NCBI GenBank assembly: GCA_964537755.1
Contig: CAZIAQ010000002.1
Span: 43,567 to 107,566 of the forward strand
Direction: 5' to 3'
Source: an uncultured Cytophagales bacterium
GTDB lineage: Bacteria > Bacteroidota > Bacteroidia > Cytophagales > Bernardetiaceae
DNA: 64,000 nt
The translations under genes and the position numbers were made by a program. Of the stretch, positions 11,926-57,337 are shown in pieces. The notes beneath the pieces are model-generated. The model worked only from the letters and a program-made list of their open reading frames with translations, was not told the origin of the DNA and did not search any database. Each line of letters starts with the position of its first letter. Within the stretch, counting starts at the first letter, position 1.

Positions 11926-14900
11926 ATGGGCGAATTAAGAAACGTGTTTATTTCTTACGGACGTCGGGAAAGCAAAGCCTTTGCCAAGCGGTTGTACGAG
12001 CGATTGTGTCCGGGAGGGTATCAGGTTTGGTTCGATCAAAATGACATTCCCTTAGCTGTTGATTTTCAGGATGAGATAGATCAAGGTATCGCTCAAGCCG
12101 ATAACTTCATCTATATCATCGCCCCGCATTCGGTCAATTCTCCCTACTGCGCCAAGGAGATAGAACTAGCCCTACGCCTCCAAAAGCGGATCATCCCGAT
12201 TTTGCACATCGAAGGTTTTGGACAGGAGGTCTGGCAGGAACGCTATCCCGAAGGCAGCCAAGACGACTGGATCGCCTTTCAGGCAACGGGACGGCATAGT
12301 AGCTTTCAGGAGATGCACCCCGAAATTGGCAAGCGCAACTGGGTCTATATGCGAGAGCAGTGCTTGCCCGGAACCGATACTTACCCGCCCATCGACGATT
12401 TCGATCAAGCCTTTGAGGGATTGGTAGCCGTCCTGGACAAACACAAAGACTACGTCCGGCAACATACCCAACTCTTGCAGCAGACCCTTGATTGGGAACG
12501 CCAACAAAAACAAAGTGCGCTCCTCCTGGTAGGGCAAGAACGCCAGGCGGCAGAAGCCTGGATCCTCCGCGACTTTAGCCCCGAGCAACCTCCTGTTTTG
12601 CCCACCGACCTGCACGCGCTCTACATCAGCGAAGCCCGAAAGAACGCCGAAAACCGAATGACCGATGTCTTCCTGACTTGCTCCATGGAAGACCGACGCA
12701 TCCGAGATCGACTCATCCTGGCCCTGGCCCGGCATTGCATCACCACCTGGACACCCGACCGAGACATCGCCCCAGGGCAAACGATGCAGGAAGCCATCCG
12801 AGAGGGCATCGAAAAGGCCGACAACCTCCTCTTTTTCATCGACCCCCACACCCTACAAAATCCCCAGTGCATCGACGAACTCAACTACGCCCGCAGCCTC
12901 AATAAGCGCATCATTCCCATCAAGATTGCCCAACCCAACCAGGAAATCCCCCAAAGCATCCGATACCTCAACTGCATCGACTTCACCGATAACACCGAAG
13001 AGATACACTTTGACGATGACTTCTACCAACTCCTCCAACAACTCCAACACGAGAAAAGCTACCACGAGCGACACAAAATGCTCCTCGTTCAGGCCATCAA
13101 ATGGCAAAACCAAAGCCAAAACCCCAGCATCCTCCTCCGAGGGCATAACCTCCAACGCGCCCAAGCCTGGCTCAAACTCGGCATCCAGCGCAAAACTTAC
13201 CCACCCAACCCACTCCACCAGCAGTTCATTGAGGAAAGTGCCGCCCAAACGGGCAACCTACAAAACATAGACATCTTCATTTCCTACTCCCGCACCGATA
13301 GCGACTTTGCCCGACAGCTCAACGAACGCCTACAAGCCAGCGGAAAAACCACCTGGTTCGATCAAGAAAACATCGAAGAGGGGGTAGCCGACTTCGGCCA
13401 AGAAATCCGAAAAGGTATTGAGCAGTCCGATAACTTCCTCTTTATCATCTCCCCAGATGCCATCGCCTCACCTTATTGCCAGGACGAAACCGAATACGCC
13501 CGCAGTCTCGGCAAACGCATCCTGACCATCCGTTGGCGGCCCCTACATGAGCAGCAACAACTCCCTCCCGCCCTGGCAACCATCCAATGGATCACGCTCC
13601 AGAATGGCTTCGATGCCATGTTCAATCTCCTGATCCGTGCCTTAGAAGTCGATCGTGCCTACGTCATGGCACACAACCGATGGCAGCGCAAAGCCCTCGA
13701 GTGGAGCGGAGGCAACATCACGCTCACCCCCGAGACACCCACCAACGACAGCCTACTCTTGCGCGGCGAAGAACTCAACAACGCCGAAGCCTGGCTCAAG
13801 GAAAGCACCCAAAAGCAGCCCCCCCCTACGACGCTCCAGCAGCAACTCATCCAGGAAAGCCTCCAGGAGAGCCAACGCGACCACAAACGGAGGCAACGCC
13901 TACTCGATCTTAGTATCTTTACCTTTGCTGTTATCATCGCGGGAGGTGTCCTGGCGGTTGTCCAATGGGTAACGGCACTACAAAGCGGCAGCCGGCTAGC
14001 AGCTTATGACCTGATATTCAAGGCAGAGACCATCCTATCCGATGATCCCGAACACGCCCTTCAGCTCGCCAAGACGGCTTATGAAGTCGAAGAAAAAAAA
14101 CATCCCCGCATCTTGAAAGCCTTTTTTGAGATGAGCCAGACGTACCTACAAATCACCCAGGAGGTCAATCAAACCCTGGTTAATCACTTGCCCCACCAGC
14201 ATCCCGTCCTCAACGTGTATCTCGATAACAGCTACGAGCAAAGCCGCTTGCTCACCCGAGATGCCAGCGGTGGTTTGCACCTCTGGAGCCACACCGGAAA
14301 CTATATCCGCACCCTTGTTACACCGCGTCCGCGTCCTTTTTTTAGCCTTGCTGGCAAGAGTACCATTGAGCAGCTTAACATCTTGTATAGCCACCACGTC
14401 AAGGGAGAAGTGCTAGCTGCCGTCTATGAAGACCAGTACGTAATCGCGTACCAGCCCGGCAAGCAACAAATTACCCTTTGGGATGGCAATGGATTACTGA
14501 TTTTTGAAAAGAAAGTAGCGCAAGGTGTCCTACGGGTCGGCTTTGCTTCATCCCTCGATCAAGAATTACAAGTTTTTTGGATAGTCTCCAATTCTCAAGA
14601 CCCCGATGCCGACACCCAAATCTTCTTCGCTGACCGCTCGGGGCAAGTGATCTATGAAGAAAAAGCCTATGAGTCCGTACAGACCGATACGCTCTTCTCA
14701 ACGGCTAGTTATGAACGCAACTCCACGGAAGGTTTGAAAGCCAGTTTTCGTGCCGATGGAAAAAGTATCGACTTGACTTACCCCTGGGAAGATAAAGAGG
14801 AAGTACCAGAAGAGCGGTTTGAGATGTTGGGGCTGCCCGATTTTTGGGGCAATCGTATGCTGCTCCTGGGGCAGGATGGTCTTTTGATCTGGACACCCTA

Positions 14901-16056
14901 CTATTACTTCGCCGATCGCCTAAAAGACATCGCGCCTTTGGATGCCTCCGAAAAAGTGGCTTATGATATTGCCAGCTTAGAGGAATCCTTTCAGGTACCA
15001 GCCGAAGCCGCGTATCAGTTGGCGAAATTGAGTTTGTTTTTGTTGTTTTTTTACTTGTCGGTCATTGCCCTGACGCTACTATACCGGTTGTTTTTGGGGC
15101 GTGAGTATTTGCGTATTGTCGTGTATGCGATCTCGGCTTTGGTGATTGTGGTGTGCTGGAGCCAGTTTTTGGTGTACCGAGACTTCTTTGCGTCTTTGCC
15201 CTTTGCCTACGGTTTATTTTTGTCGGGGGGGATGGGCTATTACTTGTATAGGTCTGCTGATATAGATGCGTTCAAGCGGCTTTTTGGCTGGATAGCGATG
15301 GTGATGCTGGTAGCGGTATCCCTGCTGGGGTTGTACTTTACCTATCCCGAATATAGCTCTCCCTCCGCCCAGACGGTACGTAGGCAGGTGCTTTCGTTGA
15401 TTCTTTTTTTGGGTTTGGCGAAGGTGAGTATTTTTGCGGTGGCATTTTATGGACTTCAACGATTTTACAACAAAAAATACAATCACCTAGCCGATTGGTG
15501 TACGAGCTGGCTGTTTGTGTTGAGTGTTTTTCTGACGGCGGCTTACTTTTATGGCCCAAGTAATGTCCAGGAAAAAGACACCATTCTGGCTGTTTTCTTC
15601 CTGGCCTGGATGCCGCTCTTGTACGTCTTTCGGCTCAATGCGCATCAGTTTGTGCTGGCTCGCCTGGATGGTCGCCGCTCGAGTCGTCGGCTGCTGCGGT
15701 TTTCTACCTGGGGTTTTGTGGGGGTGTTGGTGCTATTGACGGGTGGGTTATTTGTGGATGGGCTAGTTTTTCTTTCACTCTTTTGGTTTGGCTTGTATCT
15801 CTTGATCCTCTACGTGGCTAGTTTTGTGATCGCGATTGTCCAAAAAGACAGGTTTAGTTTGTGGGGCAATATTGGCTCCTCTATTGGCATCTTTGTCCTG
15901 GTTATGCTTTGGGGAACGGAGGCATTGGATCGAAACCAGTTAATTAGGGTGTTTCCGTGGTTGCTCTTGGGGGTGGCAGGGCTTGGTTTGGGTATTTGGC
16001 AGTACAACAAATATCGCCGCAACATCTTGGCCCAACGCGCTGTTGTGGAGGCATGA
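11926..16056 (+). CDS. Membrane protein with three tandem N-terminal TIR domains, a single TM anchor, a 340-aa middle domain and a C-terminal region of about 10 TM helices
   Basis: Three copies of the TIR hallmark: (V/I)F(I/L)SY.R.D...FA..L start, then YCAKEIEL / QCIDELNY / YCQDETEY. Each TIR is followed by an LLRG..L..A..WL helical module. TM segment LSIFTFAVIIAGGVLAVV, then a polytopic C-terminus. Confidence 0.8.
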   Translation: MGELRNVFISYGRRESKAFAKRLYERLCPGGYQVWFDQNDIPLAVDFQDEIDQGIAQADNFIYIIAPHSVNSPYCAKEIELALRLQKRIIPILHIEGFGQEVWQERYPEGSQDDWIAFQATGRHSSFQEMHPEIGKRNWVYMREQCLPGTDTYPPIDDFDQAFEGLVAVLDKHKDYVRQHTQLLQQTLDWERQQKQSALLLVGQERQAAEAWILRDFSPEQPPVLPTDLHALYISEARKNAENRMTDVFLTCSMEDRRIRDRLILALARHCITTWTPDRDIAPGQTMQEAIREGIEKADNLLFFIDPHTLQNPQCIDELNYARSLNKRIIPIKIAQPNQEIPQSIRYLNCIDFTDNTEEIHFDDDFYQLLQQLQHEKSYHERHKMLLVQAIKWQNQSQNPSILLRGHNLQRAQAWLKLGIQRKTYPPNPLHQQFIEESAAQTGNLQNIDIFISYSRTDSDFARQLNERLQASGKTTWFDQENIEEGVADFGQEIRKGIEQSDNFLFIISPDAIASPYCQDETEYARSLGKRILTIRWRPLHEQQQLPPALATIQWITLQNGFDAMFNLLIRALEVDRAYVMAHNRWQRKALEWSGGNITLTPETPTNDSLLLRGEELNNAEAWLKESTQKQPPPTTLQQQLIQESLQESQRDHKRRQRLLDLSIFTFAVIIAGGVLAVVQWVTALQSGSRLAAYDLIFKAETILSDDPEHALQLAKTAYEVEEKKHPRILKAFFEMSQTYLQITQEVNQTLVNHLPHQHPVLNVYLDNSYEQSRLLTRDASGGLHLWSHTGNYIRTLVTPRPRPFFSLAGKSTIEQLNILYSHHVKGEVLAAVYEDQYVIAYQPGKQQITLWDGNGLLIFEKKVAQGVLRVGFASSLDQELQVFWIVSNSQDPDADTQIFFADRSGQVIYEEKAYESVQTDTLFSTASYERNSTEGLKASFRADGKSIDLTYPWEDKEEVPEERFEMLGLPDFWGNRMLLLGQDGLLIWTPYYYFADRLKDIAPLDASEKVAYDIASLEESFQVPAEAAYQLAKLSLFLLFFYLSVIALTLLYRLFLGREYLRIVVYAISALVIVVCWSQFLVYRDFFASLPFAYGLFLSGGMGYYLYRSADIDAFKRLFGWIAMVMLVAVSLLGLYFTYPEYSSPSAQTVRRQVLSLILFLGLAKVSIFAVAFYGLQRFYNKKYNHLADWCTSWLFVLSVFLTAAYFYGPSNVQEKDTILAVFFLAWMPLLYVFRLNAHQFVLARLDGRRSSRRLLRFSTWGFVGVLVLLTGGLFVDGLVFLSLFWFGLYLLILYVASFVIAIVQKDRFSLWGNIGSSIGIFVLVMLWGTEALDRNQLIRVFPWLLLGVAGLGLGIWQYNKYRRNILAQRAVVEA

Positions 16057-17087
16057 TGCGTTATACGAACGAGTTTTTGGATACCCAACGCCAGGCAACC
16101 GACCCCCAGGCGGAGGCACTGGTACGCGCTGCTCTGGCACAAGACCCCAAGGGGTTTTGGCGGTTTCTCACGGATTGGGAAAGCGAAAGCATCCCGGAGG
16201 CTTTTACCGATCTGGTAACCGAACACTGCCCTGGTTATGCTGCCCCCCCTGCGGGGATGAGTGCGGAGGAGATCGCCCAAAGTGAGCTTTTTTTTGAGCA
16301 ATATTCGGAGGCGATTTTTTTGCTGCTCGGGGCATATTCCTTGCCTTACTGCTATGCCGCCGAAGCGGGTGTGCAGGTCTTGTACCAAACCCAACGCCTG
16401 AGCAAAGAACCCCTCAAACGCCTACAAGAGACTGGACTTTTTGTCTTCAATATCCTGGAAACCAATAGCTTATCCAACGGCAAAGCCTGGCTCTCCATCC
16501 TACGGGTGCGCCTCATGCACGCTGCCGTGCGCGTGAAGGTTTGGGAAAGCGGCCGCTGGGATACCGCCCGTTGGGGACAGCCCATCAACCAGGAAGACTT
16601 AGCCGGAACGCTCTTTGCCTTTTCGCTGATCGTAATTTTGGGGCTACGCAAGCTAGGCTACCGCATTTCAGCACAAGAGGCCATGGTGTATTTCAGGCGT
16701 TGGCACCTGATCGGAGAACGCCTCGGCGTAGCCCCCGAGATGCGCCCCGATGCACCTACGGCGGCCTTTGCCCTGGCCAAACGCATCGAAAAGCGCCACC
16801 TGCGTCCCTCACAGGCGGGCAAATCGCTCAACGATGCCCTGATTCACGAAACGGAGAAATCCACCGAGGGACAGCTCCCCCGAGGCTTTGTCCCGGCCCT
16901 GATGCGCTATCTACTCGGGCAGCCTATCGCCCGCTGCCTGGGCTTACCCGAAAGCGGTTGGGCTGACCCCCTGATCCAACTCAACCTACTGCGGCAGCGG
17001 CATTTGGTCTTGCCTACGCGCCCTACGCCTACGGAGGTGCATACCACCTACCGCGCCACCAAAGCACGGCTTTTGGCGATTGCTTAG
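16053..17087 (+). CDS. MpaB/DUF2236-family putative oxygenase
   Basis: ATGA overlap with the stop of the TIR gene. Start MMRYTNEF. RVRLMHAAVR motif typical of the DUF2236/MpaB/Lcp family. Confidence 0.5.
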   Translation: MMRYTNEFLDTQRQATDPQAEALVRAALAQDPKGFWRFLTDWESESIPEAFTDLVTEHCPGYAAPPAGMSAEEIAQSELFFEQYSEAIFLLLGAYSLPYCYAAEAGVQVLYQTQRLSKEPLKRLQETGLFVFNILETNSLSNGKAWLSILRVRLMHAAVRVKVWESGRWDTARWGQPINQEDLAGTLFAFSLIVILGLRKLGYRISAQEAMVYFRRWHLIGERLGVAPEMRPDAPTAAFALAKRIEKRHLRPSQAGKSLNDALIHETEKSTEGQLPRGFVPALMRYLLGQPIARCLGLPESGWADPLIQLNLLRQRHLVLPTRPTPTEVHTTYRATKARLLAIA

Positions 17088-30479: not shown

Positions 30480-32672
30480 ATGCAATTACCCGATGAGCCG
30501 ATAGACGACTTGCGCCTATACAAGAAAGCCTTTTTGGAGAAGCAAGCCATTGACGCTGCCATCACACAACTCCAGTCTGCCCTCCATTGGAAGGAAACCG
30601 ATACCACGGAGGGCTGGGGAGCGGGTGTTTTGGCGGTGGTCGCCGAACTGATGGACTTTGCCCAGGGGGTCATCTACGGCTACCACGCCGAACACAGTTC
30701 GTTTGAACCCTTTGCCTATCACACCGAAGCCGTGGAGGAGTGGATGCCCTATCGCAGCTACCGCAATCGGGCCGTGATGCGCTACCAAAAGGAACACCTC
30801 CTGCCTTTTCACACCAACGATGCCGCAGTTATTATTGGGTCTTTCCCGGGCTACACCCCACCCGAAGACCCCACGCAGCAACTTTCTTTGGTCAGTACTC
30901 CCCTGACCTACAACGGACAAATCCACGGCATCCTAGAAATCCTCTGCTCGAGGGAGATTGCCAAACGCGATCTCGAGTTGCTTGGGCGCATGGGACGTGC
31001 CATTGGGTCGCACCTGTACGGGTTGCTCAAAGAGCGACAGTCGCAGTTGGATGTACAACTCATCAACGAGAGCCGCCAAGACCTGGTGCATATCATCGAA
31101 AGCTCGCCTAGTGGGATGATTATTTTTTGGGAAGAAAACGGACGCATTGAGCGGGTCAATAGTGCCATCACCCAGATTTTGGGCTACGCAAAGGTAGAGT
31201 TGCGCTACAACCAATTTGAGCAGTTGGTTTTTCCCGAAGACTACCCCACAAGCGGCGGGCTACCCACCCATCCCGTTGAGTGGCGACTGCTGCACAAATC
31301 GGGGGAGGTCTGCTGGTGCCAAGTGAACTTCTCGAGGGTGCTACAACGCTCCCAACCCATGGTCATTGTGCAGGTACAAGACATCACCGAACGCAAAAAA
31401 GCCGAAGCCGAACTCGAAGCCAGCCGACAAAAGCTAGCCGAAGCCCAACGCCTGGCCCGTATGGGCAGTTGGGAGTGGGATATGGTCAATAACACCGTTA
31501 CCTGGTCGGATGAACTCTACCGCCTCTATGGCTACGACCCCAAAGAGTACCTCCCCGCCTACCACAACTCCTTCAAGCGGGTGCATCCCGAAGACCGCGA
31601 CCGCGTTAGGAGCACCATCCGGCAGGCAATCGAGAAAGGCGATGCCTTTGACTTCTTTCAGCGCATCGTACGGCAAGACGGACAAATACGCATCCTCCAC
31701 TCACGCGGAACCGTCTTGAAGGACAAGGGAGGAAAGCCCATCAAGATTTTTGGGACGGGACAAGACGTAACCGAAACCAAGGCCATGGAGCGCAAACTAC
31801 TCGAACAAGAACGCGCCCTCCAACAAAAACTCGAACGCCAGGTGCAAGAACGCACCCGAGAGCTGCAAGCCGAAAAAGAAAAACTCCAGCAGACCAACAA
31901 CGAAATCCTATCCAGCATGACCTATGCCCGAAGGATTCAGTTGGCGCTACTGCCCCAAAAGAAACAGATCAAAAAGCATCTCTCCGAATTTTTTATTTAC
32001 TACGTCCCCAAAGACATCGTCTCGGGTGATTTTTATTGGTTTGGTGTACAAAACAACCGACAAATTCTGGCCGTCGTCGATTGCACCGGACACGGCATCC
32101 CGGGCGCACTGATGAGCATGATCGGCAATGATCTCCTGAACGAAATCGTCTATCGCCGCGACATCACCGAACCCCAACAAATCCTCGAAGAACTCAACCA
32201 GGGCATCCGGCGCGCCCTACGCCAGTCCACGACCCGCAACCGCGACGGCATGGATGTCGCCCTCTGTACCATCGACTACGCGCAGCAACAGCTCTGTTTT
32301 GCCGGCGCACACAACCCACTGGTCTATGTGCAGGGAGGTGAACTCTTCTATATCAAGGGAGAACGCCGAGCCATCGGGGGTGTACAAAGCGACCAAAGCC
32401 CACCGTTTCGGCAGCACTGTATCTCCATTCGGGAAGAGACGATGTTTTATCTCTTTTCGGATGGCTACCAGGATCAGTTTGGTGGCCCTAAGGGCGCAAA
32501 ATTTATGAGCCGACGCTTTAGGCAACTGCTCCTAGAAATCGCAGCGCGCGATATGGATAATCAGGAGCTAGCCCTGGATCAGCGCATTGGCGAGTGGATG
32601 GGCAATAGCCACAAACAAATCGACGATATTTTGGTGATCGGTGTACGGATAAGCCCTGAAAACAAAGAATAA
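30480..32672 (+). CDS. GAF-PAS-PAS-PP2C (SpoIIE-type) serine/threonine phosphatase
   Basis: N-terminal GAF-like region. Two PAS/PAC blocks (WEWDMVNNTVTWSDELYRLYGY). Coiled coil. C-terminal PP2C block ARRIQLALLP...GDFYWF...DCTGHGIPGALMSMIGN. Confidence 0.7.
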   Translation: MQLPDEPIDDLRLYKKAFLEKQAIDAAITQLQSALHWKETDTTEGWGAGVLAVVAELMDFAQGVIYGYHAEHSSFEPFAYHTEAVEEWMPYRSYRNRAVMRYQKEHLLPFHTNDAAVIIGSFPGYTPPEDPTQQLSLVSTPLTYNGQIHGILEILCSREIAKRDLELLGRMGRAIGSHLYGLLKERQSQLDVQLINESRQDLVHIIESSPSGMIIFWEENGRIERVNSAITQILGYAKVELRYNQFEQLVFPEDYPTSGGLPTHPVEWRLLHKSGEVCWCQVNFSRVLQRSQPMVIVQVQDITERKKAEAELEASRQKLAEAQRLARMGSWEWDMVNNTVTWSDELYRLYGYDPKEYLPAYHNSFKRVHPEDRDRVRSTIRQAIEKGDAFDFFQRIVRQDGQIRILHSRGTVLKDKGGKPIKIFGTGQDVTETKAMERKLLEQERALQQKLERQVQERTRELQAEKEKLQQTNNEILSSMTYARRIQLALLPQKKQIKKHLSEFFIYYVPKDIVSGDFYWFGVQNNRQILAVVDCTGHGIPGALMSMIGNDLLNEIVYRRDITEPQQILEELNQGIRRALRQSTTRNRDGMDVALCTIDYAQQQLCFAGAHNPLVYVQGGELFYIKGERRAIGGVQSDQSPPFRQHCISIREETMFYLFSDGYQDQFGGPKGAKFMSRRFRQLLLEIAARDMDNQELALDQRIGEWMGNSHKQIDDILVIGVRISPENKE

Positions 32673-33576: not shown

Positions 33577-36500
33577 ATGGCACTTGGAGACAACCTCAAC
33601 AAAGATAGTCTGATCCCGCAGGAGAGCCACGCCACCGGCAACGAATGCCAGCAGCTCAAAGCCGCCTTGCACGCCCTTGTGCCTAGCCTCGAGCTAGATA
33701 TGCAAGGACAAATCCTGACCGCCAACGCCCCTTTTGTCCGTTGGCTGGGATTTACCGCCGACGAACTCAAAGGCAAGTCCGAACGCGCCCTACACACCGA
33801 AGCCTTCCGCCAAAACGGACGACACGCCAACGTGTGGGAATCGCTCCGAGGCGGAAAACCCTTTTCGGGAAACTTTGAGTTGATCGACAAAGAAGGACGC
33901 ACCATCACGGCCCAGATCGCCTATACCCCTCTGCTGGATGCCTCGGATCGCCCCTACAAAATCCTCCAACTGATCCAGCCCCTCCAAGACCAGCCCAGCA
34001 TCTCGTCGGACAGCCAGGAAGAGATCGAAAACCAAAAGACCCTCATCCATACCGTGCCAGGGGTCTTGTATCGCTTCGTGGCCCGGCACACGAGCGAGTA
34101 TCTCTTTCGCTACCTTAGCCCGCAGATGGCAGATATTTACGGCGTTCCAGCCGAGGAAGCCCTACAGGATTTCTCCAAAGTGCTGGCGGTGATTCATCCC
34201 GACGACCTACCCGGCGTACAGGCAGCTATCACAGAGGCCGTAGCCAAGCAAGGCTTCTTCGATTATGAGTACCGCATCTTTGTCAAAGACAAAATTCGTT
34301 GGATACGCGCCCAATCACGGGTCGAATACGTAAACGCCGATGAGGTAGAGTTTGTCGGAATTTTTAGGGACGTAACGATCCGCAAAACCGCCCAACTCAA
34401 AGCCGAAACCAACGAGGCAGCCTTCCAGCGCGTCCTGGATACCGTCCCGGGGGTGATCTACCGAGCCAAGCTCAACGCCCAAGGGCTGCCCTATTTCACC
34501 TATCTAAGCCCCTATGCTGAGCAGGTGTTTGGCTATACACCCGCAGAGGTGATGACCAACCCCGAGATGTACTGGAGCTTGATTTATCAGGATGACAAAT
34601 CTGATTTTGAAGCCAAAATGCGCCAATCCATCGCCCAACGAAGTGGCGTAGCGATGGAGTTTCGGATCACGAAGAAAAACGGCGATGTGATCTGGGTCAA
34701 GCTAGACTCCAGCGTCGATCAGGCATCGGAGGAGTACGAGTCTTACGGTATCATCCGAGATGTTACGCCGCGCATCCAAGCCCAGCAGGCGCTCAAAGCC
34801 CAGCAGCAAGATAGCCAGGAGTTGATCGCTACCGTTCCCGGGATCATCTATCGCTTTGAAGTATCCGACGAAGGAACTTCACGGATTACGTTCATCAGCG
34901 AGCAGGTACGGGAGGTCTATGAAGTCGAACCCGAAGCCGCCCTCCAAGATGCCAACACCATGTTTGGCTTGGTTTATCCCGAAGACCTACCCTTGATCCA
35001 GGAGCGGATCACACATTCGATCCAAACCAAGGCACTTTACGACGTAGAGTTCAGGATAAAGACCGCCCAAACACAAACCGAAAAATGGATTCGGGTACAA
35101 TCCAGGGTTGTGCGTCAGCAGGATGGCATCACGGAGTTTGTGGGCTTCCTGCGGGATGTGAGTACACGCCGCCGGATCCAGAACCGCGTAGCAGAAAGCG
35201 AAGAACGCTTCAACCTAGCCTTGCAGGGCAGCAACGACGGCGTATGGGATTGGAACATGCGCACGAACGATATTTTCTTCTCCGATCGCTGGAAAGCCAT
35301 GTTGGGCTATGCCCCGCAAGATATTGCAGATAACTTCGCGCAGTTTCAGGCTTTGGTGCATCCAGAGGACTTCCCCCAGGTAGAAAACGCCCTCAATGGC
35401 TACCTTGCCGGACAGTTGCCCGAGTACGATGTCTCGTTCAGGATGCAACACCAGGACGGCAGCTACCGCTGGATTCGGGCGCGTGGCAAAGCCCTATTCG
35501 ATCCGACGGGCAAGCCCTACCGCATGGCTGGTTCTCACTCCGACATCACCGACATCCGCAACAAACAAATCGCCCTTGAGGAGGCAACGGCTTACCAACG
35601 CGCCGTCCTTGAAAGCGCGGGCTTTGCCGTCGTCTCTACCGATGCCGATGGGGTCATTAACATTTTCAATGAAGCCGCCGAGCGCGACCTGGGCTATACC
35701 GCCGAGGAGATGATCGGTAAGCAAACGCCTGCCTTGATCCATGACCCCGAGGAGGTCGTTGCCCGTACCCACGAACTCAACCAGGAGATGGGACTTGATC
35801 TAAGCCCTGGATTCGAGACCTTTGTTTATCGCACCCGCACGACGGGAAAACCAGACATCCGCGAGTGGCATTACGTCCGCAAAGACGGCAGCAAATACCC
35901 CATCGTGCTTTCGGTAACCGCCGTCCGCAATGCCGCTGGAGAAGTTCTGGGCTACCTCGATATCAGCGAAGACATCAGCGAGCGCAAAGCCAAAGAAAAT
36001 GCCCTCCGCGAAAGCGAGCAACGCTTCAACACCTTCTTTGACCAGTCGATTGACTTGCTCTGTATTGCTGGCTTCGATGGCTACTTCAAGTTCTTGAACC
36101 AAAACTGGATGAACCTCCTGGGCTACACCAAGGACGAACTCAAAGCCCAGCCCTTCATTGAATTTGTTCACCCAGACGACGTAGCCGCTACCCTCCAGGA
36201 GGCCGGCAAACTCGCCGATGGGGCGACGGTTATCTCCTTCGAGAACCGCTACCGCAAAAAAGACGGTAGTTATGTGTGGCTCCAATGGAACTCGGCTCCC
36301 GTCTATGAAAAAGAACTCATCTACGCCAACGTCCGCGACATCACGGAAGAAAAAGCCCGCGAAATCCGCTTCAATCGGCAGAATGACATCCTAAACCGTC
36401 TGCCCATCAATAAAGATGTTCAAGCAGGTAACCGAGACGAAGCCATTCGGGTAATCCTGAGGTCGGTTGCCGAAGGGGTACATGTCGAACGGGCAAGTTT

Positions 36501-39500
36501 TTGGCACTACAACGCCGATCAAAGTTTCATTACGTGTCAGCAACTCTACCAACGCAGCCAACAGCAGTTCTCCAACGACCCTTTGGTGCTGCATCAAAAA
36601 GATTTCCCGTCTTATTTTGCAGCCTTGAAGCGGGGTACGCTTATCGTAGCATCAGAGGCACAAACAGACCCCGACACGCGGGAGTTCACCGAAGGCTACT
36701 TTAAGCCGAATCAAATACAATCTTTGCTCGATGTGCCGGTGCGCTTCAAAGGGGAGATCATGGGTGTTTTGTGCATCGAACACGTAGGATCAACAGCCTA
36801 TCACTGGACAAGCGATGACCAAAAGTTTCTTCGTGCCATACCGGAGATCATCACCTCCGTCATGGAAGCCGAAGAACGCCAACGTCTCGAAGCCGAAATT
36901 CGAGCCAATGCTGCCTTCAACCGCAAACTCTTTGAGGTCTCCAACTACGGGCTGCTCGTCCTTGAAGGGGGGAGTTTTACCAGTGCCAATGCCGCTGCCA
37001 TCGCACTCTTTGGCGGAGAAAAGGCCACAGAGCAAGACATCATCGGCAAAACACCCATCGACTTCTCCCCGACTACCCAACCCGACGGCAGCGACAGTGA
37101 AGCCACCCCCCTGAGGCACATCCAACGCGCCATCGACGAAGGCAGTACACTCTTTGAGTGGCAGCACCTACGAACGGACGGCACGCTATGGGATGCCGAG
37201 ATCAGCCTTATCAGTTTTGACCTGAACGAACGCACCCTGATTCGGGTCTCGATGCGCGATATTACCGAAGAAAAAGCCGCCCGAGAGAAGATCAAAGCCC
37301 AGCAAAAAGAACTCGATGATTACGTCTCGGCCATCAATACCTCCACGATACGTATTGACTTCGATGCCCAACGCCGCGTCATCACGATCAATGACAACTT
37401 TGCCGAGCTGTTTGGCTACACCGAAACCGAAGTTCTGGGCAAAACCCATGACTTCTATGTGGCTAAGGATCAAATCCGAGAGGGTAAATACGATCAGTTA
37501 TGGGACGAGATTGGCAGAGGTGTTTCTTTTGTTCGAGATGCCAAGCGGCTCTCCAAAGCAGGAAAAGAAGTTTGGCTACGGGCTAGTTATATCCCGATAC
37601 TCAATCAGCAGGGGCATCTCGAGCGCGTTACCTGTCTCTGCAACGACATCACCGAACAAAAACAATTTGAACTCGAAGCCAGCCGCCTCCAAGGCGAACT
37701 CGAAGCCCGAATGAAGATCATCGACAAGGTGGCTCTGGTTACTGAAACGGACATCTACGGAACGATCACTTTTGCCAACGAAAAGTTTACGGAGGTCTCC
37801 GGCTACACCAACACCGAAGCCGTAGGCAAACCCCATAACATTGTCCGCCATCCCGATAACCCCAAAGGCATCTACAAGGAGATGTGGGATACGATCAAGG
37901 CCGGTAAGCTCTTCCAAAAGACCATCAGAAACCGCCGCAAAGACGGTACAGATTACTGGGTCGATGCCTCCATTGCCCCCATCCTGAACGAAAAAGGTGA
38001 GATTGTCAAGTATCTGGGCTTCCGTATCGACATCACCGCACAAAAACAACGAGAACTGGAGCTACAACGCCTCCAAAACGAACTCGAGGTACGTCTGAAG
38101 GTCATCAGCAAGGTGGCTCTTCTGAGTGAATCCGACTTGCAAGGGCGCATCACGTATGCCAACGATAAGTTTTGTGAAGTCGCCCAATACACCGAAGCCG
38201 AACTCATCGGTAAGCCGCATAGCATCATCCGCCATCCCGAGACACCCAAAACCATCTTCAAAGAGATGTGGGAAACCATCCAGGCAGGAAACATCTTCCA
38301 GGGAACCTACCGCAACCGCGCCAAAGATGGACGCACCTATTGGGTCGATGCTACGATTGCCCCCGTCCGAGACGAAAACGGCGACATCTACAAGTATCTC
38401 GGCTTCCGCATCGACATCACGGATCGCATCGAACAAACCGCCCGCATAGAAGCCCAAAACTTTGCCATCGGCAAATCCAACGGTACAATCGAACTCTCAC
38501 CCGAAGGGCAAATCCTGGACGCAAACAAAACCTACCTTGACTTTGTGGGCTACACCCGAGATGAACTGATCGGCAAGCACCATAGCTTCCTTTGCAAGCC
38601 CGAGGAGGTCGCCTCACCGAGCTACAAAGAAATGTGGCAAACCCTTCGAGAGGGAAAGACCCTCTTTGGCGACTACCGAAGGATCACGAAGGATAAGCGA
38701 GAGGTTTTCATCCAGGAATCGTTTAGCCCGATCTATGACCAAAGCGGCAACCTGTCCAGCATCCTGACCCTTGCCGTCGATGTAACCCAGCGCAAGCGAC
38801 GCAACGCCGAAAACCGAGGCAAACTTGAGGGGATCAATAGCACCAACATCGTCATAGAGTACGACTTTGAAGGCCGGCTCCTGACCGCCAACGAAAACTT
38901 CCTCCAAACCAGCGGCTATACCCTCGAAGAGGTCATCGGCAAGCCTCACAGTTTCTTCTGCGATCAAAACCACATCAACAGCAGCACCTACCAAGACCTC
39001 TGGAAAAAACTCCGACAAGGAGAAGCCGTTTTTGATACCTACCCCCGTATCGGCAAGGCCGGACAACGCATCTGGCTCGAGGGTAGCTACACCCCCATCA
39101 CGGATGACGACGGACGACTGCTCAAGATCGTCAAGTTTGCTCAGGATGCCACCGAACGCCGCACCCGTAACGCCGAAAACCGAGGCAAGCTCCAGGGCAT
39201 CAACCGGACTAACCTCGTCGTGGAGTTTGATCGAGAGGGGGTTGTCATCTCGGCCAATAACCGATTCCTGGAAGCGATGGGGTACCAGCGTGAGGAATTC
39301 ATCGGGAAGGCACATGCCATGTTCTGTGATGAAGTCTATCGCAACAGCCGCGAGTACCGCGAGTTCTGGGATGACCTCCGCAGTGGTAAGGCACTCTTTG
39401 GGACATACCCGCGCCTAAACAAAGCAGGCAAGCGCATCTGGCTCGAAGGCAACTACACCCCGATCACGGACGGTGAAGGCAACTTCTTGAAAGTTGTCAA

Positions 39501-40881
39501 GTACGCCCGAAACGTAACCGACCTTCGGCAGTCTTCCATGGCTTTGAGCAACTTCGTAGATGCCCTCTCCCAGGGTAACTTCGATGCCGAAATCCAACTC
39601 GAAGGCGTAAGCATTGAAGGAGACATCGGGAAGATGATCGGCAACGCCATCAACCTCCGCGATAACCTCCGAAGCATTATCACCGAAATCAAGCGCGTCG
39701 TGGAGGCTGCTGGTAAGGAGGGTAAGCTCGACGAACGCCTCAACATCGAAGGCGCAAGGGGTTCCTGGAAACTCTTAGCTGACTCGGTAAACGAACTGCT
39801 CCGCTCCATCTCCGAACCCATCCTGGACATCAAGCGGGTCATCCAGTCGCTCTCCGAAGGAGACCTAACGACCTCCTTCAACTACGCCGCCACCGGGCAG
39901 CTTCAAGCCATGGGACAGGCGATGAACAACGCCATCCAGAGCCTGAACGTGATCCTGAAAGACCTCGAAAGCAGTGCCGTTACGTTAGGGCAATCCTCTC
40001 ACCTACTCGAGCAGCGATTTGAGGGCATGGAAAAAGATGCCCAAAGCGTCGTCAAGACCATCGTCAATATCAACGACGGGATGCACCAGCAGGTACAACA
40101 AACCGATCAGGCAACCCAACTCGTCGAGAAGGTCATCAAGAGTGCCGACGAAACAGGACAGCAGGCGGGTATCATCCGAGGAGCCGCCGAAAAAGGGATG
40201 CAGCGTTGCGACGACGGGATGAAAATCATCCGACAACTGGTACAAGAGATGAGCCAGATCGACCTGACCGCCAACCGCACCAGCTCTTCCATCAGCACGC
40301 TCTCCGATCGCTCCGATGAAATCTCCCGTGCCTTGAGTGTCATCACCGACATTGCTGCCCAAACCAACCTCCTGGCCCTCAATGCTGCCATCGAAGCAGC
40401 CCGAGCCGGAGATGCCGGACGTGGCTTTGCCGTCGTTGCCGAAGAGATACGAAAGCTAGCCGAGGATTCCCGACGATCCGCTACGGACATCGAGCGGGTC
40501 ATCAAGGATGTATCCAAAGACATCAACACCGCCGCCGATTCTATCAATCGGATGAAAAACAGCGTAGAAAACGGCAACCGAGCCACCAAAGAAGCCCGAG
40601 AGGTCTTTGAGAACATCTCCGATTCTAGCCGCGAAACCCTGGATTTGTCCCGCAGTGTCTCCGAAGCCACCAGCGGTCAAAAGGAGATCATCACGCAGGT
40701 AGCCAGCAACATCCAACGCATCGTGCAGGTCTCTCACCAGACTGCCAAAGGAACAGAGGATGCCACCAAGTCATCCGAAACGCTTCAAAGTTCGGTCGAT
40801 GAGGTTGCCACTGTCAGTAAGGAACTCGCCAAGCTCTCCGGTACGCTCAAAACAGGGGTTAGCCGCTTCAAACTTGTCTAA
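33577..40881 (+). CDS. Giant soluble methyl-accepting chemotaxis protein with about 14 PAS/PAC domains, a GAF domain, HAMP and MCP signalling domain
   Basis: 2434 aa. Many repeats of the PAS/PAC pattern (W..D..R..A..). C-terminal MCP signalling core [34 protein letters not shown]. No obvious N-terminal TM helices. Confidence 0.85.
37669..38410 (+). repeat. Tandem duplicated PAS module pair inside the MCP gene (two units of about 370 nt)
   Basis: Protein blocks [40 protein letters not shown]... and [39 protein letters not shown]... are co-linear and roughly 60-65% identical. Confidence 0.6.
38790..39520 (+). repeat. Second tandem duplicated PAS module pair inside the MCP gene
   Basis: [43 protein letters not shown]... 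versus [43 protein letters not shown]..., co-linear through ...[14 protein letters not shown] / [14 protein letters not shown]. Confidence 0.6.
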
Positions 40882-52798: not shown

Positions 52799-53235
52799 CA
52801 GAAGGGCAGGTCATCCGCGCTGGTGGGCGGGGGCGGAGGCGGGGGCGGGGGTGCGCTGCTTGTTGTTGCGGGCGCGAACGCAGGGCTACTGCTCTCTCCG
52901 GCCGCTGCTTGCAGCGCAAAGACTTTAAGGGAGTTAAACCAACGCATGGGTTCTGACGGCGAGCGTTGCCAACTGCGCCCTTCGATGGCTACGCGGGCCA
53001 GCACCTGGTCGCCTTCCTTGTAGCTATCCAGGAGATCGCATTTGTCCTGGACGAGCTGTAGCAGGATTTCTTGGGGATAACGATCCTCCTCCACGTGCAA
53101 GACAAACTCCCGTTTTTGGAAGCGTTCGGAGACTACCTGCGTATCAAATTTCTTGATGATTTTTCCGGTAATATCAATGGTAGGCATACAGAGAGAATGT
53201 TTTTTTTGAACAAAGGTACAATTTTTTGTGGGCAT
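52798..53235 (-). CDS. DUF3127-family protein with C-terminal polyproline tail
   Basis: Core MPTIDITGKIIKKFDTQVVSERFQKREFVLH resembles DUF3127. Tail APPPPPPPPPTSADDLPF. ATG overlaps the stop of the upstream TIR gene (TGATG). Confidence 0.5.
   Translation of the reverse strand: MPTKNCTFVQKKHSLCMPTIDITGKIIKKFDTQVVSERFQKREFVLHVEEDRYPQEILLQLVQDKCDLLDSYKEGDQVLARVAIEGRSWQRSPSEPMRWFNSLKVFALQAAAGESSSPAFAPATTSSAPPPPPPPPPTSADDLPF
52822..52853. repeat. Imperfect G5C-type hexanucleotide simple repeat encoding the polyproline tract
   Basis: ggtgggcgggggcggaggcgggggcgggggtg; encodes PPPPPPPPP on the minus strand. Confidence 0.6.
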
Positions 53236-55709
53236 CACTCCACGGTAGCTTCCTTAAACTCCTTTTCGATCAACTCGCGCAGGCGTTGCTTGACTGCCGG
53301 ACGAATGACCCCAATGGCAGCCATATCATCGACCGCCCGCTGGAGGTCTTTTTGGGCTTGCTCGAGTTTCTTTCGGAGTTCCTGGAACTTTTCGATCTCG
53401 CGTTGCTCCTGGGCCGAGAGCCTGCTTTTGGCCTGCCGTTCTACCTGTACGCGCTCCCTGACCGCCTGCTGGCGTTGGGAGATGGCGATGCCTGCTTTTT
53501 GGAGGGCGGCTTCGGCATTGGCTCGGGCCGTTTCTACTTCGATTAGGGCATTTTGGAGGCTGATTTCGGCTTCGAGAGATTTCTGGAGGGCGCGTTCGGT
53601 CTCTTCGGTTTTGAGGCGGGCTAGCTTTTCGGCTTCTTCGGCTATGGCTAGGGCGGCACTGGCCTCCGTGGTACGCTTGTAGGCAATGCTGCCAAAGACA
53701 ATGGCCACCAAAAGGGCTACACTGATGATAACCAGGGAGATGTTCTGCCGTCGGACGCGCTTCTGGGCCTCCCGTACACGGGCGCGTTCGAGGTCGAGGA
53801 GGCGACGCTCCTGGGCTTCCTCCTGCTGGCGCGTCCATTCGATGACCTCTTCGCTTTTGGCAATGAAGGATTCCTGGAGGGGGGTGGGGGCGGGTTTTTT
53901 GTTGCGGCGTTTGGCATCTTCGAGCCACTCCTTGGCAATCGTGAACTCACTGCCGCGCAAGAGAAAGTCTTCATTTTGTCCGTTTTGGCTCCACTGGCGG
54001 GCCTCCTGCTCCCATCGGGTGTGGCTACGGACATGATCGCTGTCGGCATCGAGTTGGCGGATGAGCTGACTGAAAGCGTCGTGGAAGTCCATCTTGTCGC
54101 GCTCAAAATCAATTTGCGTGGTTTGGCGCAGGCGGTCAGGCATCTGCCAGGGTGGTACTTCGTCGTAAATCAGGGTGATGATGCGCTTGCCCAGGGTTTG
54201 GGCGTGGGCGAGTTCGGCTTGGGTGTCGGTGTTTTCGACGGATTTTTTGGAGAGGATAAAAACGACGTTATCGGATTCGAGGATAGCCTGCTCTACCTCC
54301 TGACGGAAGCCCTCGGAGGAGTTGGTGTTGATGGTTTCTTGATCGAACCAGGTGTTTTTGCCGTGGATTTGTAGTTCTTCGTTGAGCCGTCGGACAAAAT
54401 CGCCTTCGTTGGAGGCATAGCAAAGAAAAACATCGGTGCGGATTTGTCCTGTCTTGAGGAGGCTTTCCTGGATGAAATCTCGGTGGAGTTGGGTGGGCTT
54501 ATGGTCGGCTCTGCGTTCGCCGATGTCGAGCCAGGCTTGGGCTTCTTGGAGGGATTGCCCCTGGAGCAAGATGCTATCGTTGCGGTTTTGTTGTTCCCAC
54601 TTGAGGGCGCGGGCTAGGAGTATTTTGTGTTGGTGGTAGTAGGTTTGGTCTTTTCTGATTTCCTGGATCAGGTCTCGGATGTCGATCTGGAAATGCTCTT
54701 CGTTTTCGTTGTCCGTGAAATCGACGCGCTTGAGGGAGCGCACCGAGCGGGGGATTTGGTAATCGTCCACAAACTCCACGAGCAGGGGGATGATACGCTT
54801 TTGGTTCTTGATCGCTGTTTTGAGTTCTTTGAGGCACTCGACAGAAACGACGGACTCGGTGGAAAGAAAAAAGATGAAGTTATCCGAATGCAGGATACCC
54901 GTCTTGGCGGCATCGCGGGCGCGTTGTCCGGTTTTGATGTCGGCTTCTGTCCAGGTCGTGATGCTTTTGCGGTGCAGGGCGGCCGTGATCTGCTCCCGTA
55001 GCCGGCGGTCGGCGGGCGGGGAGGAGATAAAGACATCGGCCATGAGGTTTTCGGCGTTCTTTCGGGATTCGCAGATGTACTCGCATTGTAGGTCGGTGGG
55101 TAGGCAGGGGGTTTGCTCTTTGCGAAAATCCGTCAGGAGCCATTTGAGGGCTTGTTCACGGTCGTCTCCGGCAAGTAAAAACTGGGGGCGACGTTGGTTT
55201 TGGTTCCAGCGGATGGCTTCATTGAGGATATAGGTATGCCAGGCGACGTACTCCTGGTTGCTCTGGAGAACAGCTTTGAGTGCATCAAATGCTCTGGCAA
55301 AGTCGTCGATGTCCTCCCACTGTTCAAGGGGAAGATTGGGATCATACTGCTGCCTAAAGTACAGCCAGTTGAGCTTCGAGATCGTGGGGTGCATCTGATC
55401 CCAGTCTTCTTTTTGCTGGGGTTCGATGTGCAAAATCGGGATGATGCGCTTACCCAGCCGGATGGCTTGCAGAATTTCTTTGAGGCAATAAACAGAGCGT
55501 AGGGCGTGCGGGGCGATGATAAAGATGAAGTTGTGGGCCTCCTGAATGCCCTGGTCGATTTGGGTCTGGAAATCTACCGCCAGCGGGATGTCATTCTGAT
55601 CGAACCACACGGCATAATCCTCTGCCCTTAGCCAGTCGTGGATTTTGGTAGCGAAGGCTTTGCTTTCCGCGCGACCATAGGAGATAAAAACATCTTTGAA
55701 ATCCGACAT
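53235..55709 (-). CDS. Membrane-anchored protein with three tandem TIR domains and a C-terminal coiled coil (paralog of 11926-16056)
   Basis: N-terminus VFISYGRAESKAFATKI...VWFDQNDIPLAVDFQ...YCLKEILQ is nearly co-linear with the other TIR gene. Second and third TIRs follow (ECLKELKT, TQAELAHA). Then a TM segment ISLVIISVALLVAIVFG and an Ala/Glu/Gln-rich coiled coil. Confidence 0.8.
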   Translation of the reverse strand: MSDFKDVFISYGRAESKAFATKIHDWLRAEDYAVWFDQNDIPLAVDFQTQIDQGIQEAHNFIFIIAPHALRSVYCLKEILQAIRLGKRIIPILHIEPQQKEDWDQMHPTISKLNWLYFRQQYDPNLPLEQWEDIDDFARAFDALKAVLQSNQEYVAWHTYILNEAIRWNQNQRRPQFLLAGDDREQALKWLLTDFRKEQTPCLPTDLQCEYICESRKNAENLMADVFISSPPADRRLREQITAALHRKSITTWTEADIKTGQRARDAAKTGILHSDNFIFFLSTESVVSVECLKELKTAIKNQKRIIPLLVEFVDDYQIPRSVRSLKRVDFTDNENEEHFQIDIRDLIQEIRKDQTYYHQHKILLARALKWEQQNRNDSILLQGQSLQEAQAWLDIGERRADHKPTQLHRDFIQESLLKTGQIRTDVFLCYASNEGDFVRRLNEELQIHGKNTWFDQETINTNSSEGFRQEVEQAILESDNVVFILSKKSVENTDTQAELAHAQTLGKRIITLIYDEVPPWQMPDRLRQTTQIDFERDKMDFHDAFSQLIRQLDADSDHVRSHTRWEQEARQWSQNGQNEDFLLRGSEFTIAKEWLEDAKRRNKKPAPTPLQESFIAKSEEVIEWTRQQEEAQERRLLDLERARVREAQKRVRRQNISLVIISVALLVAIVFGSIAYKRTTEASAALAIAEEAEKLARLKTEETERALQKSLEAEISLQNALIEVETARANAEAALQKAGIAISQRQQAVRERVQVERQAKSRLSAQEQREIEKFQELRKKLEQAQKDLQRAVDDMAAIGVIRPAVKQRLRELIEKEFKEATVE

Positions 55710-55816: not shown

Positions 55817-57337
55817 TTGTTTTTTACATTCGTTATGTTACCATCCGCACATCCGATGCACCCCCTGCTGCTGCGCTTCCGTGAGCCTGATACGGAGGAG
55901 CAGTACGCTTGGTTTGCACTGCCCTCCGACCTACGGATGCTCCGCACGGCGGCACTTTTGGGGGCGATCATTTACGGGTCTTTTGCCGGGCTAGATTTTT
56001 TTCTGCACGCCAACGACTTTGCTGCCCTGGCATGGGTGCGCCTGGCTGTCGTTGCACCGTTTTTGTTGGGCGTTTGGGCCTGGACTTACCTCCAAAAGAA
56101 CGCGACACCGAAGGTCTTGCAGTGGGTAGCTTTTTCGAGCCTGTTGGTAGCGGCGGCGGGCAACTTCATCTTAGCCAATATTGCCGAGTTGGCGCATTTT
56201 TATTTGGTCAGCATCACGACCATCGTGTTGTTTTTGGGCTATACCATTACGGGCATCCGCTTTGAGCGGCTGCTTTGGTTTGGCGTGGGGATTCTGGCGG
56301 CTTTTCAGTTTTATGGCTTGCAGGTGATGCACGTGGATTTGCTTGAGCTGGGCTACGAAGACATTATCTTGTTTTGTGTCAATGCCGTAGGTGTGCTGGC
56401 CAGCTATGTCATTGAGCGCAGCCGGCGCTTTCAGTTCCTGGGGCAACTGCTCGTAGAAGAACAAAAAAACGAAATCGAACAACAAAACGAGGAAATCCGC
56501 CAACAAAACGAAGAAATCAACACCCAAAAAGAAGACCTCGAAGAGAAGCATCACCTCCTCGATCAGCGCAACCGACAGGTCATGTCCAGCATCACTTACG
56601 CCAAGCGCATCCAACGCGCCCTCTTGCCCGAACATGCCCGCATAGGAGAACATTTCCCAATGTTTTTTGCTTTTTTTAGACCTAAGGATGTCGTATCGGG
56701 TGATTTTTATTGGTTTGCTGTTCAGAAAAACTACCAATTCCTCGTCCTGGCCGACTGTACCGGGCATGGCGTTCCGGGCGGCTTCATGACCATGATCGGT
56801 AACATGCTCCTCCAACAGATCATCGCCGACAACCACTGCTGGGAAACCGATCAAATCCTACACCAACTCGACCAACGCCTAGCCCAGACACTCCACCGCA
56901 AATCCGTTGATAACAAAAAGGTATCCGATGGGATGGATATGGCCATCTGTCGCGTCGATCAAAGCCAGAGCCGCCTGCAGTTTGCCGGAGCCAGACAGCC
57001 CTTATGGCGCGTGCGCCAAGGGCAAATCGACACCTACAAGGGCGACCGTGTGCCTATCGGGAGCTGGGGCGATAAAGCCAAGCATTTCACGGCACAAGAG
57101 ATTGACATACAGCCCGGGGACACCTTCTACATGACCTCCGACGGTATGCCCGATCAGTTTGGCGGCGGAGCCATTCCCACCAAATACACCGCCAAACGCC
57201 TGCGCCAACTCGTTACAAAAATTGCGGATCAGGAAGCTGCCACTCAGGAAACCATCTTATCCGAGACCTTCGACGACTGGCGCGGCAAAGAAAAGCAACT
57301 CGACGACGTACTCATCCTTGGGTTTAGACCCAGGTAA
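55817..57337 (+). CDS. 7TM-receptor domain fused to PP2C (SpoIIE-type) phosphatase
   Basis: Seven N-terminal TM helices. Coiled coil (QQNEEIRQQNEEI). C-terminal PP2C block AKRIQRALLP...GDFYWF...DCTGHGVPGGFMTMIGN...DGMPDQFGG. Confidence 0.65.
   Translation: MFFTFVMLPSAHPMHPLLLRFREPDTEEQYAWFALPSDLRMLRTAALLGAIIYGSFAGLDFFLHANDFAALAWVRLAVVAPFLLGVWAWTYLQKNATPKVLQWVAFSSLLVAAAGNFILANIAELAHFYLVSITTIVLFLGYTITGIRFERLLWFGVGILAAFQFYGLQVMHVDLLELGYEDIILFCVNAVGVLASYVIERSRRFQFLGQLLVEEQKNEIEQQNEEIRQQNEEINTQKEDLEEKHHLLDQRNRQVMSSITYAKRIQRALLPEHARIGEHFPMFFAFFRPKDVVSGDFYWFAVQKNYQFLVLADCTGHGVPGGFMTMIGNMLLQQIIADNHCWETDQILHQLDQRLAQTLHRKSVDNKKVSDGMDMAICRVDQSQSRLQFAGARQPLWRVRQGQIDTYKGDRVPIGSWGDKAKHFTAQEIDIQPGDTFYMTSDGMPDQFGGGAIPTKYTAKRLRQLVTKIADQEAATQETILSETFDDWRGKEKQLDDVLILGFRPR

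Follow-up and report, generated by a model that had tools for sequence, protein, structure and literature searches.

Tandem TIR arrays in two receptor-like proteins of a Bernardetiaceae bacterium: a catalytic-position glutamate in all six TIRs, a complete NADase-type pocket in three

Does a glutamate retained at the catalytic position tell whether a TIR domain is an enzyme or a scaffold? The question is raised by two genes in a stretch of 64,000 nucleotides – referred to here as the window – from an uncultured Cytophagales bacterium of the family Bernardetiaceae (GenBank assembly GCA_964537755.1, contig CAZIAQ010000002.1, positions 43,567 to 107,566 of the forward strand). They encode protein A and protein B, each with three TIR domains, named A1 to A3 and B1 to B3. 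A preliminary description of positions 12100-13500 – which fall within the open reading frame of protein A, protein B lying outside them – had noted a C-x-x-E motif in these domains and had taken it to mean that they are enzymatically competent. The reading that we favour, with a probability of roughly 55%, is that A and B are receptor-like membrane proteins, each encoded by one gene, and that A1, A3 and B1 would cleave NAD+ and A2, B2 and B3 would be non-catalytic. As such, the motif is unremarkable: it is by a conserved catalytic glutamate that TIR NAD+ glycohydrolases (NADases) are usually recognised. More interesting is the tandem array, which A and B share with a family of thousands of representatives, in which three to seven TIRs, joined by a linker of their own, lie on a single membrane-anchored chain.

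The catalytic position that had been proposed for the glutamate is borne out for each of the six TIRs: it falls in the same column as E642 of SARM1, E208 of AbTir and E74 of Cat1. The six peptides are found exactly as first quoted (Table 1), and the cysteine three residues before the glutamate is indeed lost solely in B3, where Thr496 occupies the expected position. In phmmer searches of PDB sequences, ‘YCAKEI’ of A1 pairs with ‘WVHKEI’ of SARM1 and ‘WTEYEL’ of BtTir (7uxr), ‘DTQAEL’ of B3 with ‘WTNYEL’ of AbTir and ‘QCIDEL’ of A2 with ‘ECDFQT’ of MyD88. When the six units are aligned with SARM1 and BtTir in MAFFT, their glutamates likewise all fall into the E642 column, and a profile of 40 family sequences pairs the motif with ‘SDWCWDEL’ of Cat1 and ‘SEWCHYEL’ of TLR6. 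In an AlphaFold2 model of A (residues 1-670, 36-sequence alignment; predicted local distance difference test score, pLDDT, 88.4; predicted template-modelling score, pTM, 0.81), E78, E318 and E521 lie in helices 73-84, 313-324 and 516-527, which correspond to alphaC, after the third strand of each TIR. This model shows the flavodoxin-like fold of TIRs, with alternating beta strands and alpha helices, and in Foldseek it reaches target-normalised TM-scores of 0.7-0.85 to the TIRs of MyD88, Hydra TRR-2, SARM1, MAL, AbTir and SPARTA. By sequence equivalence, all six glutamates are the catalytic-position residue.

The remainder of the NAD+ pocket separates the six domains. In Cat1, cryo-electron microscopy and mutagenesis assign to the pocket S7, H8, N9, N10, D33, S68 and E74, together with K121 and Y122 from the stacked TIR; in AbTir, the E208A mutant is inactive and W204 governs cyclisation, an aromatic residue there going with cyclic products. 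To these columns we added Y568, R570, D594, F603, W638 (the AbTir W204 column) and E642 of SARM1. Of the columns read here, A1, A3 and B1 keep the equivalent in every one, reading S, Y, R, D, F, S, Y, C and E, with W as the aromatic residue supplied in trans. The same columns hold T, C, M, P, M, N, Q, C and E in A2, with C for the trans aromatic; S, S, P, a gap, A, S, E, C and E in B2, with R; and C, Y, S, D, F, N, D, T and E in B3, with Q. Condensed to the SARM1-equivalent string (Y568, R570, D594, F603, W638, Cys, E642), this is YRDFYCE for A1, A3 and B1, CMPMQCE for A2, SP-AECE for B2 and YSDFDTE for B3. Condensed to the Cat1 columns (S7, H8, D33, S68, E74 and, in trans, Y122), it is S, Y, D, S, E and W for A1, A3 and B1; T, C, P, N, E and C for A2; S, S, gap, S, E and R for B2; and C, Y, D, N, E and Q for B3. 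The last of these thus keeps Y, D, F and E499; in it, Cat1 S7 is replaced by C, Cat1 S68 by N, AbTir W204 by D, the motif cysteine by T496 and Cat1 Y122 by Q.

Read in this way, A1, A3 and B1 appear to be complete NADase-type TIRs, A2 and B2 seem to retain essentially the cysteine and the glutamate alone, and B3 is apparently intermediate, so that the likely non-catalytic TIRs number three, not one. The claim of enzymatic competence is supported in part, by the glutamate at the catalytic position in all six domains and the full pocket in A1, A3 and B1; it probably does not extend to A2, B2 and B3, where the pocket is degenerate. In the same way, B3 had rightly been singled out as diverged – its core shares 64-67% identity with close orthologues, against 80-90% for B1 and B2 – but it is not the only such domain, as A2 and B2 have diverged as well.

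How far a retained glutamate should count can be judged from the relatives of these proteins. Searches with A and B return thousands of them, and we define the family by at least three repeats of a TIR followed by a W..LL.G..L..A..W linker, and then a transmembrane helix; A and B, with three units each, belong to it. A hidden Markov model of the six window units collected 219 proteins (A, B and 217 database sequences) with three to seven tandem units, and the family occurs mostly in filamentous bacteria. Among 1204 pooled homologous units, the glutamate column holds glutamate in 1092 (91%), the -3 column cysteine in ~92%, the -6 column serine in 91% and the Cat1 Y122 column an aromatic residue in 85%. 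Conservation of the motif is far above chance, yet six glutamates out of six are the expected state within the family. Where all four other signature residues are present (n=845), 99% of units have the glutamate; the share is 91% with three of them and 44-48% with one or none (n=130). The full set occurs together in 70% of the 1204 units. Because retention of the glutamate tracks that of the other signature residues, the residues of the pocket evolve together, as those of an active site would; A2 and B2 fall in the class with none, and their glutamates are therefore weak evidence for catalysis.

Completeness also depends on the place of a unit in the array. Of 227 proteins with three units, 94% have the full signature in unit 1, 42% in unit 2 and 85% in unit 3, and the commonest patterns (C, complete; d, degenerate) are CdC (97 proteins), CCC (83) and Cdd (23); A is CdC and B is Cdd. 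In seven-unit proteins, the corresponding figures are 80, 10, 90, 10, 100, 30 and 70%, that is, 70-100% for odd units and 10-30% for even ones. This suggests a two-unit period in arrays of five to seven units (P0005-P0014 and others), in which two subtypes alternate. Checked residue by residue, the alternation is driven mainly by the D594 equivalent (D/N to H) and the W638 equivalent; a strict, all-or-none loss in odd or even units was rejected on this check, which shows a tendency of a distinct unit subtype instead. For the clade of A and B, the idea that a degenerate middle TIR donates the trans aromatic residue (the Cat1 Y122 equivalent) to its neighbours found no support either, as A2, B2 and B3 all lack it; in three- and five-unit family proteins, 77-83% of unit-2 TIRs keep this aromatic.

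Among closer relatives, A-type and B-type genes co-occur in Bernardetia genomes, and unit 1 reads YRDFYCE in each of the 31 proteins of either type that were compared, namely the pair from the window and 29 orthologues. Unit 3 has the same string in all A-types and in nearly all more distant B-types, P0132 having Phe for Tyr at the W638 position, and reads Y-x-D-F-D-[T/A/C]-E in the clade of the window’s B. Unit 2 is degenerate in the window’s clade of both paralogues, and the close B orthologue P0127 has Gln in place of its Glu. Identity to close orthologues is 56-59% for A2 against 76-87% for A1 and A3, and B2 stands at 80-83%; on these alignments, A2 is evolving faster than A1 and A3, and B3 is the fastest unit of B.

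The motif had further been described as plant-like, a label that has to be dropped: the same S-x-W-C-x-x-E-L is found in bacterial Cat1 and human TLR6. A search of the PDB with the family profile rules out a plant-specific affinity, with AtTIR, ROQ1, RUN1, RPV1 and RPP1 as the weakest matches (E-values of 1.7e-6 to 1.7e-4) and Cat1, SPARTA, SARM1, TLRs and MyD88 at 1e-14 to 1e-10. To judge from these sequences, S-x-[WY]-C-x-x-E-[LIV] is an alphaC motif general to TIR domains rather than a plant feature. The form S-x-Y-C-x-x-E-[IL] occurs in A1 and B1, and the version in A3 ends in Thr; with Cat1 and TLR6 sharing it, the motif does not discriminate.

Neither of its two conserved residues settles the matter of activity. 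In plant TIRs, the glutamate is catalytic and the cysteine is adjacent to it in the pocket; C132 of L7 and C83 of RBA1 are required for a reported 2',3'-cyclic nucleotide monophosphate (cNMP) synthetase activity and dispensable for NADase activity, which L7 C132A retains, and AbTIR is an active NADase with Thr at this site. Loss of the cysteine as a mark of lost NADase activity in B3 is ruled out by these two precedents, and the residue is uninformative on NADase competence. As to the glutamate, a 2026 preprint has TLR2, IL-1R9 and IL-1R10 retaining it with activity undetected and reports TLR4 as active, and TirB and TirD of Dictyostelium keep it and do not cleave NAD+. The glutamate alone does not separate enzyme from scaffold, and the original argument from its retention to an enzymatic role is not supported.

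Could all six TIRs, or five plus a regulatory B3, nonetheless be competent NADases simply because C-x-x-E is kept? The glutamate in the catalytic column of all six, the cysteine of five and the clear purifying selection on B2 would fit. However, neither A2 nor B2 has counterparts of SARM1 Y568, D594, F603 and W638 or of Cat1 H8, D33 and Y122; the glutamate persists in about half of the pocket-less units of the family and carries little weight; the cysteine is dispensable; P0127 lacks the unit-2 glutamate; and the nearest solved relative of A2 is the scaffold TIR of MyD88. We regard this explanation as very unlikely. The converse, that none of the six is enzymatic and that the arrays are assembly scaffolds recruiting other proteins, as MyD88 and MAL filaments do, draws on the top Foldseek matches of the A model (MyD88 filaments and a Hydra Toll-related receptor), on the TLR-like receptor layout and on the glutamate kept in TLR TIRs with activity undetected. 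It is unlikely in the face of the full Cat1/SARM1/AbTir pocket, jointly kept in the majority of family units and invariant in unit 1 of the orthologues, which would be hard to explain without substrate binding; moreover, no gene for a TIR partner or adaptor lies nearby in the window or in Bernardetia sp. OM2101.

The cysteine leads to another proposal, namely that it is kept for a second, synthetase-like activity of the plant type. It is at least as conserved as the glutamate (514 against 500 of 556 units) and outlasts it in degenerate units (61-74% against 44-48%), and the L7 and RBA1 cysteines are needed for precisely that activity. But MyD88, TLR6, Hydra TRR-2 and Cat1 share this cysteine, which makes packing of alphaC the simpler reading, and no nucleic-acid-binding feature was found, though the basic alphaD patch known from plant TIRs was left out of account; a second activity of this kind is highly improbable.

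We return to A and B as receptor-like proteins with both complete and degenerate TIRs. Their domain content, the positional equivalence, the family-wide conservation pattern and the membrane architecture are observed here. The N-terminal ~650 residues, predicted to be cytoplasmic, would form an array of three units, each a TIR with a three-helix linker (of high confidence overall in the model of A), followed by one transmembrane helix and an outside part – a predicted propeller and polytopic domain in A, a putative coiled coil in B. A1, A3 and B1, with their complete pocket, would act as NAD+ glycohydrolases and are probably able to make cyclic ADP-ribose (cADPR) products, given the Tyr, an aromatic residue, at the AbTir W204 position; A2, B2 and B3, with the fold kept and most of the pocket lost, would be pseudo-enzyme TIRs that serve as spacers, assembly surfaces or regulators of the array. 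Since two TIRs make up the active site in solved TIR NADases, activity would hinge on the packing of the array, inside one chain or across several. Most likely, arrays have to be brought together for activation, presumably when the outside domain senses something, and NAD+ depletion or an NAD-derived signal would be the output. From all this we infer catalysis, a product, a trigger and a biological role, possibly defence or cell suicide in a filamentous bacterium.

Several points weigh against this proposal. The glutamate is also found in inactive TIRs; the TIRs called degenerate might bind NAD+ differently or have another activity; and B, with a single complete TIR, would have to act between chains. 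B2 combines a degenerate pocket with apparent constraint, a pairing that a structural or regulatory pseudo-enzyme should show; this fits the proposal and does not prove it. Furthermore, no defence island, operon or conserved partner was found in the window or in Bernardetia sp. OM2101, where the neighbours are housekeeping genes that differ between genomes; a role in defence is unsupported by genomic context.

A more speculative extension, which we hold to be possible rather than probable, makes A and B bacterial counterparts of Toll-like receptors in logic: a sensor would act through a transmembrane helix on a predicted-rigid TIR chain with a tendency to alternation (CdC, CdCdC or CdCdCdC), complete and pseudo-enzyme TIRs would pair in cis, and clustering of the receptors would fire NAD+ cleavage or a cADPR-type signal. 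A and B, which Bernardetiaceae conserve together, may then assemble with one another, B with its one complete TIR modulating A with its two. If true, the sensor link would offer a transmembrane route to the activation of bacterial TIRs, so far known mainly from animals. As every known TIR enzyme requires a pair of TIRs for each active site, a covalently linked array is in any case a natural system for studying TIR-TIR geometry as a control of activity, and the role of pseudo-enzyme TIRs.

Among known systems, Cat1, a CRISPR-associated CARF-TIR NADase (PDB 9mud, 9mue and 9muo), is the best solved match to the family profile (E-value 1.1e-14). It shares the S-x-W/Y-C-x-x-E-L motif of alphaC, and A1, A3 and B1 keep the equivalents of its active-site residues, including the trans aromatic. 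Cat1 is, however, a soluble protein with a single TIR and a CARF sensor, activated by cA4 and encoded in a type III CRISPR locus, whereas A and B combine three TIRs per chain with helical linkers, a membrane anchor and an outside domain, in a context that is neither CRISPR nor cyclic-nucleotide. SARM1 is the best single-sequence match of A1 (E-value 9e-6): A1, A3 and B1 match it at Y568, R570, D594, F603 and E642 and have an aromatic residue at W638 (Tyr for Trp), with Cys for V639; its eight-residue insert before alphaC is absent. The similarity is confined to the TIR; ARM and SAM domains are missing from A and B, as is the SAM-ring octamer. AbTir, which like BtTir is a bacterial TIR protein that produces cADPR isomers, is the best match of B3, and both have Thr at the cysteine position, but the Trp that determines cyclisation in AbTir is Asp in B3; unlike A and B, AbTir is soluble and joins a coiled coil to one TIR. 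The TIRs of plant RUN1, RPP1, ROQ1 and L6/L7 have the spacing S-x-[WY]-C-x-x-E-[LI] in common with the window’s domains and are nonetheless the most distant solved relatives, aligning only up to alphaC; plant TIRs are fused to NB-ARC/LRR or stand as TIR-only proteins, acting through EDS1, and the bacterial A and B have neither NB-ARC nor LRR.

With the TLRs and MyD88, the shared logic is that of an outside domain, one transmembrane helix and a cytoplasmic TIR. In the A/B family, though, the order is reversed, with the TIRs N-terminal and the outside domain C-terminal, there are three to seven TIRs plus a linker module, and the LRRs have their place taken by propeller, CHASE2 or FGE ectodomains; nothing points to common descent of the whole architecture. 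Tandem TIRs do exist in mollusc Tolls. Human MyD88 is the nearest solved relative of A2 (E-value 2e-6), and the likeness includes the KR[IL]IPIK and F/Y-T motifs after alphaC. The TIRs of A and B are also matched by the Pfam ThsB_TIR and PADLOC ThsB models of Thoeris, but no gene for a ThsA-type effector lies near A or B in the window or near the OM2101 genes, and scores with the NCBIfam models for Thoeris and retron-TIR fall well short of the cut-offs (ThcB4, 100.8 against 220). In PADLOC and NCBIfam overall, matches are at the level of the TIR or below threshold; PDC-S66, itself a candidate only, matches across linker and TIR (E-values of 1e-27 for A and 7e-20 for B). Searches of the literature for bacterial arrays of tandem or multiple TIRs, and for TIR with CHASE2 or TIR with WD40 in cyanobacteria, did not find a description of the family, which is not proof that none exists.

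Proteins A and B are collinear paralogues with 40% identity across their ~710 N-terminal amino acids (Table 1). They are identical to NCBI MGF1532240.1 and MGF1533767.1, respectively, both deposited as ‘TIR domain-containing protein’ from a metagenome-assembled Bernardetiaceae bacterium (Bacteroidota, Cytophagales). Pfam TIR_2 (PF13676) matches three stretches in each, with 242 bits for A and 213 bits for B against a cut-off of 28; in the Pfam scan, TIR families were the sole matches, with no NB-ARC or LRR. There is no N-terminal signal peptide, and the TIRs are therefore placed in the cytoplasm and the C-terminal parts outside or in the membrane.

Table 1. Proteins A and B and their parts, with the C-x-x-E peptide of each TIR (positions are those of the window; aa, amino acids)
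Feature	Position	Strand	Description	Basis
Protein A	11926..16056	+	1376 aa; 3 TIR+linker units, transmembrane helix, beta-propeller, polytopic transmembrane bundle	open reading frame, Pfam TIR_2 x3
TIR A1	11926..12438	+	aa 1-171; apparently complete pocket; S10 Y11 R13 D37 F47 S72 Y74 C75 E78 W139; Glu codon 12157-12159; YCAKEIEL at 12145-12168	
Linker 1 of A	12439..12651	+	aa 172-242; three helices	
TIR A2	12652..13047	+	aa 243-374; degenerate; C315 and E318 kept (codon 12877-12879); QCIDELNY at 12865-12888	
Linker 2 of A	13048..13260	+	aa 375-445	
TIR A3	13261..13647	+	aa 446-574; complete signature; C518, E521 (codon 13486-13488); YCQDETEY at 13474-13497	
Linker 3 of A	13648..13875	+	aa 575-650	
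First transmembrane helix of A	13915..13971	+	aa 664-682	hydropathy; long helix 636-669 in AlphaFold2 model
Predicted extracytoplasmic region of A	13972..15027	+	aa 683-1034; three helices and beta-propeller	
C-terminal polytopic membrane domain of A	15028..16053	+	aa 1035-1376; 9 hydrophobic segments, ~11 long helices	
Protein B	53235..55709	-	824 aa; 3 TIR+linker units, transmembrane helix, putative coiled-coil tail	
TIR B1	55263..55709	-	aa 1-149; complete signature; C75, E78 (codon 55476-55478); YCLKEILQ at 55467-55490	
Linker 1 of B	55050..55262	-	aa 150-220	
TIR B2	54657..55049	-	aa 221-351; degenerate; C292 and E295 kept (codon 54825-54827); ECLKELKT at 54816-54839	
Linker 2 of B	54444..54656	-	aa 352-422	
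TIR B3	54054..54443	-	aa 423-552; partly degenerate; E499 (codon 54213-54215), T496; TQAELAHA at 54201-54224	
Linker 3 of B	53814..54053	-	aa 553-632	
Transmembrane helix of B	53685..53741	-	aa 657-675	hydropathy
B tail	53238-53684	-	aa 676-824; charged, Ala/Glu/Gln/Arg-rich; putative coiled coil	judged by eye from sequence

The linker of ~70 amino acids, for which a Pfam scan gave no family, carries the motif W..LL.G..L..A..W..P..L..FI.ES, with two Trp residues invariant in a 44-sequence alignment; in the AlphaFold2 model, the helices of the first linker of A span residues 174-192, 203-213 and 228-241. A profile of 65 linker positions retrieved 6095 representative proteins among 1.84 billion, 2556 of them at E<=1e-10, and the best 150 of the 6095 all carry three to seven copies and are all TIR arrays. 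In 106 of 122 family members, a transmembrane helix lies within 41 residues of the last unit. The outside domains found across the family, WD40, CHASE2, FGE-sulfatase and Cache, are folds of the sensor type, and A has a predicted propeller. The C-terminal polytopic domain of A was without a match in Pfam and PDB searches.

Neighbours in the window are genes for an S41 peptidase, an MpaB-like protein, CutA, FolP, HisG and a SpoIIE phosphatase. The longest open reading frame of the MpaB/rubber-oxygenase-like gene (15957-17087, + strand) starts at a GTG 100 nucleotides inside A; its true start is probably later, because the Pfam domain begins well past the stop codon of A. Two SpoIIE/PP2C-type phosphatases are encoded in the window, one divergently adjacent to protein B (55817-57337, +) and one with PAS domains (30480-32672, +). 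Elsewhere in the window, an unusually large chemoreceptor of 2434 amino acids (33577-40881, +), with at least 12 PAS domains, GAF, HAMP and an MCP signalling domain, is followed by a CheA-type kinase (42113-43894, +) with Hpt, H-kinase_dim, HATPase_c and CheW domains. In Bernardetia sp. OM2101 (CP170094.1; L001, L002), the A-type and B-type genes lie ~186 kb apart, in surroundings unlike those of the window; the B-type gene there sits beside genes for an integrase, a VapE-like primase and a Toprim protein, possibly a mobile element.

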